A stretch of 35,130 nucleotides of DNA from a virus (taxonomy: Duplodnaviria > Heunggongvirae > Uroviricota > Caudoviricetes), in the IMG/VR virus record IMGVR_UViG_2740892229_000022. One strand, written 5' to 3'. A program made the position numbers. Positions 12,001 through 15,000 of the stretch are shown one piece after another. Position 1 is the stretch's first letter; each line of letters opens with the position of its first letter.

Positions 12001-15000
12001 GATTGAACAGATCAATATCGCCCTTGAACATAAAGGTTCCGGTAACTTTTCAGCGTGGGTTATTGAAGCCTGCAGGAGAAGGCTGGCAACAGATGCAACG
12101 CATCTGCGTCCGGCCAGCATGACAAATAACGAGAAATGAACGTTCGGTTACAGGAGCGGGTACCCACTGTCCTCCAACAATATTTCATCTTCATACCCGG
12201 CGGAACAAGACTTACCCAGCCGGAATGTACAGAATAACAACAGAGTGATAATTAATTTCTGATGAAATAATCAGGGTGCAGAAGGACTAAAGATAAACGT
12301 TTTCTTCACGCCTTTACGCGGCCTGTCCTTCTCAAATCGCCATTTTGCCATCGCCTTTACAACCTGCTCATCAAACAGATGGTGCGGCTCTGAACGGATA
12401 AACTCAATTCGGGTGACAGTACCATCAGCACCAATATCAAACTTCACATCAACCCGTCCCTTTATATAATTTGCCGCTGCATAGGCCGGATATTGTGGTA
12501 ATGCCTTAACCAACTGTCGGGGCATATCTGTTTTATGTTGCGTACAGCCCATAACCAGAGAAGACAACAAAATAATTAACGGAAGATTTCTTTTCATTTT
12601 CATTCCCGGCACAGATAAGAATAAGTCTTATTCTAACAATGCCACCCTGTCGGCCATCAATCCTCTGCTTAATGGCAACGACAATTATCCGACTTAAATC
12701 ACAAATCAGACACATGACATAACAGGTCTTGCGAGGTAACACATCGTCCGGTTTCTTCCACCATCGCACCGAACCAGCGACCATGAGGGGACAACGCCGC
12801 GCTCCGTTAACGCGGTAAACCCCGGTGTGTATNNNNNNNNNNTTCCTGCCAGTTCTGAATGGTACGGATACTCGCACCGAAAATGTCAGCCAGCTGCTTT
12901 TTGTTGACTTCCATTGTTCATTCCACGGCCAAAAACAGAGAAAGGAAACGACAGAGGCCCAAAAGCTCGTTTTCAGCACCTGTCGTTTCCTTTCTTTTTA
13001 GAGGGTATTTTAAATAAAAACATTAAGTTATGACGAAGAAGAACGGAAACGCCTTAAACNNNNNNNNNNAAGGCCAAAAAGCCCGTTTTCAGCACCTGTC
13101 GTTTCCTTTCTTTTCAGGGGGTATTTTAAATAAAAACATTAAGTTACGACGAAGAAGAACGGAAACACCTTAAACCGGAAAATTTTCATAAATAGCGAAA
13201 ACCCGCGAGGTCGCCGCCCCGTAACCTGTCGGATCACCGGAAAGGACCCGTAAAGTGATAATGATTATCATCTACATATCACAACGTGCGTGGAGGCCAT
13301 CAAACCACGTCAAATAATCAATTATGACGCAGGTATCGTATTAATTGATCTGCATNNNNNNNNNNTTTTCAGCACCTGTCGTTTCCTTTCTTTTCAGGGG
13401 GTGTTTTAAATAAAAACATTAGGTTACGGCGAAGAAGAACGGAAACGCCTTAAACCGGAAAATTTTCATAAATAGCGAAAACCCGCGAGGTCGCCGCCCC
13501 GTAACCTGTCGGATCGCCGGAAAGGACCCGCGAAAATGATAATGGTTATCAGTTGCAGCAAATCCAGTTTCTTCCACCATCGCACCGGACCAGCGACCAT
13601 GAGGGGACAACGCCGCGCTCCGTTTACGCGGTAAACCCCGGTGTGTATCGTTTTTGATTATCCCCGCACACTCGCGCAGAGTAGTCTCCCTGTCGGGCTG
13701 CGGTCTCTGTTAATGAGGGAATACAGCGACGATACGGCGCATCAGCAAAACTTAGTTCAGGCACTGAGTGCGGATATAGTCCTGTGCCCCTTCCAGCTGC
13801 TTCTGCATTGTCATCAACCGTTCTCTGAGGATGAAATAATCCCGTGTAACGGTGTCTGCCAGTTGGGGGCCGGTTGCATTATCCACGCGGGCGGTGCCGG
13901 TGGCTTCACGCACGGGACCTGGACAGGTGGCGTTGATCCGCAGGCTGCGGTGACCAGCGGCAACGTCAGCGCGAAGAGTTTCATTTTCAGCTCTCGCATC
14001 GGCTAATTCCCTCGAGTATCTGGCATCAAGTGCAGCAACATCACGCTGGCGCTGCTGCATATCAGTAATGGTTGCATTTGCCAGCTCCAGCTCACTGACT
14101 TTTTTATCGCGCTGCTCTTTGTAGGTTATGGCGTTATCACGGTAATGATTCAGCCCCAGACTAAGCGCACCACAGGCCACCAGCAGGGCAATGATGACCA
14201 CGCACAGTACGCGGTTCATTTCACCACCAGCGTATCTGACCGATGAAATAACCGGAGGCCATAATCACAAACACCCGCCAGATAAGAATGAACTTCCAGG
14301 TAGATAATTTTTCAGCCATCACTCGAATCTCCCGAATCAGTTTGCTAAAATCAAACACACTTTCTCCTTTGACTTTTCCAGAGTCAGGAAACACAAAACC
14401 CCGCTTGCAGCCAACAAACGGGGTTTTTACTTTTATTCACTTAGTTTTTGTCAGTTCGCAGGATTTCGTGTTATCCGTCCGTGTGAGCAAACCTCATTTT
14501 TCAGCAAAATATTCTTCTTATCTGTCGATTCCCCAGCACGCCAGCGCGCTCTCCTGGTCACGACGGGATACCTGACCGTAACAGTTGTTTGAACGGATAC
14601 GGCAGTCTCTGCCACCGTCCTTAATCNNNNNNNNNNTCATGAAACAATCTTGTTGACTTTATTCACTTACATTTTGCCAGTTCGCAGGATTTCGTGTTGT
14701 CTACCCGCGTTGGCCAACGTCATTTTTCAGCAAAATATTCTGCTTACCTGTCGATACCCCAGCATGCCAGCGCACTCTCCTGGTCACGTCTTGATACCTG
14801 ACCGTAACAGTTGTTTGAACGGATACGGCAGTCTCTGCCACCGTCCTTAATCCACCAGCGAATCGCCTCACACGCTCCCCTGCGATCGCCTGCATTAAGC
14901 CGCTTATAAAACGTCGACGGGAAACACTTACCGGGGCCAATGTTATAGGGGCAAAATGACGCGATACCTGCTTTTTGTGGCTCGGTCAGTGGAACTTTTA

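Follow-up and report, generated by a model that had tools for sequence, protein, structure and literature searches.

Fragments of lambda-type cos junctions in one scaffold of a Shiga-toxin-producing Escherichia coli: alleles that very probably stem from several resident prophages

The stretch of DNA analysed here (35,130 nucleotides (nt), Caudoviricetes, IMG/VR record IMGVR_UViG_2740892229_000022; called the window below) contains, between positions 12843 and 13560, several short segments that resemble the cos site of phage lambda, i.e. the junction at which the right and left ends of the lambda genome are joined. The question is where these segments come from. A sequence-only reading had taken them as a sign of at least one prophage with a lambda-type cos, or conceivably of contamination with lambda DNA. 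We consider it very probable that they represent cos sites of the known lambda type, which belong to three or more resident prophages, that they were fragmented by repeat collapse during assembly, and that their layout in a row is not biological. Since the window also carries an stx2 operon, its source is a Shiga-toxin-producing Escherichia coli (STEC) strain.

The window is not continuous DNA. It is made of nine pieces split by eight runs of N, each of which is exactly 10 N long. Three of these runs (12833-12842, 13060-13069 and 13356-13365) flank the cos-like segments and bound a piece of 217 nt (block 1), a piece of 286 nt (block 2) and a contig of 1261 nt (block 3). The earlier description of short blocks lying between N runs thus holds for blocks 1 and 2, but block 3 continues to 14626 into Rz and lysozyme genes.

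A BLAST comparison with lambda (NC_001416) showed that all three blocks are the lambda cos junction read on the minus strand, which bears out the proposal that cos junction fragments are present here. The E-values of the alignments range from 6e-12 (a 52-nt right-end piece in block 3) to 1e-142, so a chance resemblance can be excluded. The identity over the lambda-like parts is 97.7% in block 1, 98.25% in block 2 and 94.6% in block 3. Taken piece by piece, it varies from 90 to 100%; the resemblance is real, and "near-identical to lambda" has to be read as this range. The right end in block 2 (13220-13355, lambda 48502-48367) is identical at 136 of 136 positions, in good agreement with the roughly 135 base pairs (bp) noted earlier, and its left end (13071-13219, lambda 150-1) is 96.7% identical, with 4 mismatches and 1 gap in cosB. 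In block 3 the two parts are less similar, 96.2% for 13367-13499 (lambda 133-1) and 90.4% for 13500-13551 (lambda 48502-48452), with 9 mismatches and 1 gap altogether. The minus-strand translation of 12843-12914 in block 1 is MEVNKKQLADIFGASIRTIQNWQE, identical to residues 1-24 of lambda Nu1, just as the sequence-only reading had stated. Outside the cos blocks, the only DNA in the 35-kilobase (kb) window that resembles lambda in this comparison is an Rz stretch and a ynfO-like stretch (79-84%), and the same BLAST search found no gpA-type large-subunit gene.

It is useful to recall how a lambda-type cos is built. According to PMC4669245, cos is a site of about 200 bp whose subsites are cosQ, cosN and cosB. 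What is established for lambda is that, after induction, dimers of Nu1, the small terminase subunit, bind the R3, R2 and R1 elements of cosB via an N-terminal winged helix-turn-helix, helped by a bend that IHF induces at the I1 site between R3 and R2; the bound Nu1 anchors the large subunit gpA, which nicks cosN at positions 12 nt apart and so produces the cohesive ends, while cosQ is required to recognise and nick the downstream cos that ends packaging (PMC4669245). As the right and left ends of the virion DNA are joined in a prophage, an intact cos junction is the expected integrated state.

All of these elements, namely the 12-nt cohesive end, the R repeats, the upstream heptamer and an adjacent Nu1 gene, are found in the window. 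The core of the Nu1-binding R element, CGTTTCCKTTCT, occurs seven times, always within the three blocks, compared with 0.3 occurrences expected by chance. The cores keep the order and orientation they have in lambda (R3, inverted R2, R1): all three are present in block 1, whereas blocks 2 and 3 have R3 and R2, their R1 being beyond the contig ends. The weak microRNA-family matches seen at 12930-13000 are merely the inverted repeat formed by R1 and R2. The interval between R3 and R2, where the putative IHF site I1 would be located, carries 0-4 substitutions and no insertions or deletions in the alignment with lambda. The exact 12-nt cohesive end GGGCGGCGACCT, reported before, was found in both blocks that reach this part of the site, and block 1 lacks cosN because this truncated contig begins at lambda position 45. 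The cosN site together with the 32 bp upstream of it is identical to lambda in block 2 and has one substitution in block 3. Both block 2 and block 3 have an intact heptamer GGGTCCT, and its distance from the nick equals that in lambda; we presume this heptamer, at lambda 48473-48479, to be cosQ, in line with the papers of the Feiss laboratory. PMC4669245 describes cosQ as a highly conserved 7-bp site, giving its length and conservation only. As for the adjacency to Nu1, 24 codons are present in the window, and full-length homologues of Nu1 and A follow the identical sequences in complete genomes. The features are collected in Table 1.

Table 1. Features of the three cos-like blocks in the window (positions of the window; lambda positions refer to NC_001416)
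Feature	Position	Strand	Remarks
Block 1	12843..13059	-	lambda 45-262; cosB R3, R2 and R1 plus Nu1 start; 97.7%, 4 mismatches, 1 gap, E 4e-102
Nu1-type small terminase, first 24 codons (N-terminal DNA-binding end)	12843..12914	-	ended by contig edge
cosB R1 core, block 1	12939..12950	-	lambda 155-166; exact CGTTTCCTTTCT; position from alignment
cosB R2 core, block 1	12984..12995	+	lambda 109-120; inverted relative to R1 and R3
cosB R3 core, block 1	13040..13051	-	lambda 53-64
Block 2	13070..13355	-	complete cos junction: lambda 48367-48502, cosN, cosB up to lambda 150
cosB R2 core, block 2	13100..13111	+	
cosB R3 core, block 2	13156..13167	-	C53T change at first core base (TGTTTCCGTTCT)
cosN 12-nt cohesive end, block 2	13208..13219	-	exact match to GGGCGGCGACCT
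GGGTCCT, block 2 (presumed cosQ)	13243..13249	-	position of lambda 48473-48479; stretch 100% lambda
Block 3, cos part	13366..13551	-	lambda 48452-48502 plus 1-133, 90-96%; third allele
cosB R2 core, block 3	13380..13391	+	
cosB R3 core, block 3	13436..13447	-	
cosN 12-nt cohesive end, block 3	13488..13499	-	exact match to GGGCGGCGACCT
GGGTCCT, block 3 (presumed cosQ)	13523..13529	-	
Rest of block 3 contig	13552..14626	-	non-coding element 13560-13742, Rz spanin gene 13752-14219, lysozyme gene 3' end

Even though the three blocks share the general plan of the lambda site, they are not the same sequence. All of them cover lambda 45-133, and in the alignment they differ from each other at positions 53, 71, 73, 78, 97, 102 and 105. 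In a real chromosome, truncated versions of one site that overlap and yet are not identical cannot lie next to each other; the blocks are distinct alleles of a repeat, not pieces of one site. It is here that the earlier proposal of one resident prophage with a lambda-type cos, although right, turns out to be understated, as there are three alleles and they match separate prophages in complete genomes.

The best guide to these prophages is the complete genome of E. coli 2013C-4991 (NZ_CP027355.1), in which the loci of block 1 and block 3 are 300 kb apart. Block 1 is 100% identical to positions 985075-985291, under nohA, and is the allele of a Qin-like prophage; this locus has the order ydfO, ynfO, cos, nohA, followed by genes for the terminase large subunit, portal, protease, decoration and capsid proteins. 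The whole 1261-nt contig of block 3 is 100% identical to positions 1287723-1288983, in a second lambdoid prophage where a lysis module is followed by homologues of Nu1, A, W, B, C, D, E and FI. Block 2 is identical at 285 of 285 positions to 2255530-2255814 of NZ_CP059283.1 (strain SY3626), between ynfO and nohA, and it too reads as an allele of a Qin-like prophage; dozens of other chromosomes carry a version that is one mismatch away from the SY3626 sequence. Window position 13070, the last base of block 2, agrees with no reference. A scan of genome contigs for an exact 40-mer specific to block 2 gave only two E. coli chromosomes and one contig of Escherichia albertii, with 95% overall identity.

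Each of these sites has close relatives, among them the cos regions of the E. coli cryptic prophages Qin and DLP12 (ynfO-cos-nohA; nohD). Block 1 is found under nohA or nohD annotations in thousands of genomes and is 98.6% identical to a K-12 strain. K-12 Qin is truncated just after nohA. In contrast to Qin, the Qin-like element of the STEC relative has a full-length Nu1 homologue of 181 amino acids (aa), a complete lambda-like head module and an IS3 insertion nearby. The prophage of block 3 carries tRNA genes, SASA esterase, holin, lysozyme, Rz, cos and Nu1/A/W/B/C/D/E, and it belongs to the non-Stx lambdoid prophages of enterohaemorrhagic E. coli (EHEC) and STEC, from which no difference was found. 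Matches to block 2 are present in 4606 of 5426 complete E. coli genomes (about 85%); the median genome has 2 such places, and the number goes up to 9. The cos sites are therefore members of a known lambda-type family that occurs in Qin-like and other lambdoid prophages of STEC, and there is nothing novel about them.

One could also imagine that there is a single cos-bearing prophage and that the three alleles are error variants of sequencing or assembly, a suspicion fed by the shortness of the contigs and by the base at 13070 that matches no reference. We regard this as very improbable, given that the full pattern of single-nucleotide polymorphisms (SNPs) of each allele recurs exactly in independent complete genomes and that 2013C-4991, the nearest complete genome, has 3 places that match block 1 and 11 that match block 3.

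The comparison with lambda itself shows both similarities and differences. The 12-nt cohesive end, the spacing of R3, inverted R2 and R1 and the N-terminus of Nu1 are shared with the lambda cos and its Nu1/A terminase, and the 32 bp that precede the nick, the presumed cosQ included, are identical or almost identical. On the other hand, each block carries 4-9 substitutions in cosB, including C53T in R3 of block 2, and the right end of block 3 diverges upstream of 48452 where it joins a different lysis module. Identity close to 100% across each contig, as would be expected of lambda itself, is not found. The one stretch that is 100% lambda is 188 nt of block 2, comprising the right end, cosN and the left end up to lambda 52, and it is this stretch, along with the 24 identical residues of Nu1, that could suggest that the blocks derive from contaminating lambda DNA (a size ladder, a cloning or cosmid vector or a laboratory lysogen) which was assembled together with the genome. 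However, the same 188 nt are also 100% identical to the chromosomal Qin-like prophage of 2013C-4991. The Nu1 homologues of two resident prophages, 181 aa long and different from lambda Nu1 at two or three residues, have N-termini identical to MEVNKKQLADIFGASIRTIQNWQE, so the exact lambda peptide is uninformative about lambda itself. Two of the blocks, 1 and 3, match resident prophages at 100%, and the cosB sequence differs from that of lambda in all three (4 mismatches and 1 gap in each of blocks 1 and 2, 9 mismatches and 1 gap in block 3). The cos part of block 3 runs without a break into a non-lambda Rz/lysozyme module whose Rz is only 79% similar to that of lambda, and no other lambda gene is present in the window. 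As no block is wholly lambda, contamination, which the sequence-only reading had mentioned, is in our view next to impossible. In more general terms, exact matches to a lambda peptide or to cosN in E. coli do not indicate contamination with lambda.

Another potential source of a lambda-like cos would be a phage-inducible chromosomal island (PICI), in which at least one of the copies could serve to hijack the terminase of a helper phage. E. coli PICIs do have cos sites, which the lambda-like terminases of helper phages package (PMC6739421, PMC9026076). But block 1 runs directly into the Nu1 gene, blocks 2 and 3 have R3 and R2 of the phage type, and in complete genomes the latter two blocks are preceded by phage lysis genes or Qin genes and followed by Nu1/A and head genes. 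In every complete genome examined, both flanks consist of phage genes, unlike the island genes expected around a PICI cos, and we find this explanation highly unlikely.

If the three cos copies belong to separate resident prophages, it has to be explained why they stand next to each other in the window. One Stx2c prophage accounts for the two largest contigs, its left part being 18263-35130 and its right part 1-8789; it has genes for an integrase, replication proteins and Q, three tRNA genes, stx2A and stx2B, then the small and large terminase subunits (TerS and TerL), portal and head proteins. They match the region 603-632 kb of 2013C-4991, with 100% identity at 18263-22696 (the first 4434 nt) and 99.98% over all 8789 nt of the contig 1-8789. 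Instead of Nu1, this prophage has a small terminase of the DUF1441 family (window 7526-8068; Pfam, E 6e-49), so the Nu1-type cos blocks are not part of the Stx2c prophage. Between the two halves, at 8790-18262, seven small contigs of at least four prophage types are chained, amounting to 9.45 kb of contigs where the reference 2013C-4991 has about 3.6 kb (a DUF6645/SASA esterase gene, DUF1378, DUF826, holin, lysozyme and Rz). Besides the three cos blocks, these contigs include lysis-region pieces that match other prophages better than the Stx2c prophage, and two contigs (4 kb) contributed by a fourth prophage type, which carry genes for YnfO-like, TonB_C-domain and HNH proteins, a Terminase_2 TerS and a 553-aa TerL.

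The joins between contigs give a hint of how this chain came about. At three other joins of the scaffold, the final 60 nt of a contig are found again, without any change, within the contig that follows, offset by 55-156 nt, and the two contigs disagree at the base directly in front of this 60-mer. Such overlaps, with a mismatch in front, have the look of two in-branches that meet on a (k-1)-mer in a de Bruijn graph of k=61. The start of block 1, too, lies exactly 60 nt ahead of the first SNP private to it, at lambda 105. Velvet writes scaffold gaps that are estimated at less than 10 bp as exactly 10 N, and this would fit the gaps seen here. On the simplest account, the cos/Nu1 region, being a near-identical repeat in several copies, was cut by a k=61 de Bruijn assembler into short allele-specific contigs at the branch points. 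The lysis-cos-terminase regions of several lambdoid prophages would form a tangle in the graph, the alternative paths of which were presumably linearised in series, and the scaffolder would then have chained the cos contigs, along with pieces from three or more further prophages, in the space that separates the Stx2c halves. Each of the three cos copies would in this scheme come from a different resident lambdoid prophage of the STEC strain.

The literal reading of the scaffold, i.e. a tandem array of three cos copies that lie truly side by side as a result of recombination between prophages, agrees with the order of the copies as given. It is, however, at odds with the truncation of each copy exactly at an N run, with the distance of 300 kb in the nearest complete genome, with the surplus of several-prophage contigs over the 3.6 kb of the reference and with contig ends whose k-1 overlaps are typical of graph branches. 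In addition, those complete genomes that match best have every one of the blocks as a single copy, with one joined piece per place. We consider a true array extremely improbable. Hardly any credit can be given either to a related idea, a recombinant junction that places two or three lambdoid cos regions physically beside the Stx2c prophage: all that speaks for it is the adjacency in the scaffold, and the nearest complete genome contradicts it. Were it true, the stx2c region could become packageable by a Nu1-type helper terminase that acts on the cos sites in tandem.

There are a few points that weigh against our preferred explanation by resident prophages and repeat collapse, and these need to be discussed. 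The first concerns block 2. Among the up to 60 best records listed, a copy with 100% identity was found in other strains only and not in 2013C-4991. The Qin-like prophage of 2013C-4991 equals block 2 over the first 188 nt and then continues as the block 1 allele, so block 2 may represent a further prophage of the source strain, or else it could be, in part, a chimeric path through the assembly graph. Secondly, block 1 ends at lambda 262 and not at 236, where a pure k=61 unitig model would place its end; the model fails there because the Nu1 copies of a related genome are identical from 177 to 327. We tried the pure k=61 logic on every contig end and abandoned it in this strict form, as it fits the start of block 1 and the three joins, but not the end of block 1. 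Thirdly, the copy number and linkage of the blocks were judged from assembled sequence, not from reads. Finally, the Qin-like elements may be defective, and the cos copies are only potentially still cut and packaged.

The k-mer logic also suggests a fourth allele, one that equals block 1 over lambda 45-104 but has G at position 105, which would explain why block 1 starts at 45; this idea is inferred from the k-mer logic only, given that block 1 starts at lambda 45 and not at 11.

As to the significance of these results, their practical value is a warning on assembly, and the biological importance is small. The gene order in the 8.8-18.3 kb part of the window, including the apparent neighbours of stx2c, is not trustworthy.

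The part of the block 3 contig that follows its cos deserves a few words. The stretch 13552-14626 is the end of the lysis module located upstream of cos in the prophage; its Rz spanin gene was recognised by the Pfam family Phage_lysis (E 3e-47), and RefSeq annotates the identical stretch accordingly. A conserved non-coding element of 86-183 nt lies just 3' of Rz and is present at 8228-8313, 12747-12832 and 13563-13648, the copies being 94-97% identical to each other; two of them extend to 8225-8407 and 13560-13742. The element is common to prophages with three different packaging modules. It had no match in Rfam, and its predicted fold was no better than those of shuffled sequences (z 0.21); we therefore rejected it as an RNA or as part of cos, and it is probably a shared 3' boundary of the lysis module.

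The scaffold as a whole contains three unrelated packaging modules. One of them is the module of the Stx2c prophage (5406-8068, minus strand), where the DUF1441 TerS is accompanied by a 707-aa TerL. The second (8896-11117, minus strand) has the Terminase_2 TerS and the 553-aa TerL; genomes that match it have a gene for an HNH endonuclease beside these terminase genes. The third is the lambda Nu1 stub at 12843-12914 on the minus strand. The fourth prophage type also has two small cargo-like open reading frames (ORFs) between its lysis module and its HNH-terminase module (11939-12612). The first is a DUF3950/YnfO-like ORF of 66 aa (11939-12139, plus strand) with 84% DNA similarity to lambda 48169-48303, and the second an ORF of 113 aa with a TonB C-terminal domain (12271-12612, minus strand).

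Some further features were seen in the Stx2c prophage. The stx2 operon is complete (stx2A at 19235-20194 and stx2B at 18954-19223, both on the minus strand) and is 100% identical to a locus of 2013C-4991 in which subunit A is annotated as Stx2 and subunit B as Stx2c. Directly upstream of the operon there are three tRNA genes (20285-20536, minus strand), first Met-CAT according to ARAGORN (Ile in RefSeq) and then Arg-TCT twice. Directly downstream of stx2B, and next to the N run at 18253-18262, there is a strong match to the small RNA STnc100 (18665-18879, minus strand; Rfam score 159 bits, gathering score 47). The prophage's early region has, at 27913-28101 on the minus strand, an Rfam match to C4 antisense RNA (85 bits) that adjoins one to the Hfq-binding RNA isrK (57.6 bits).

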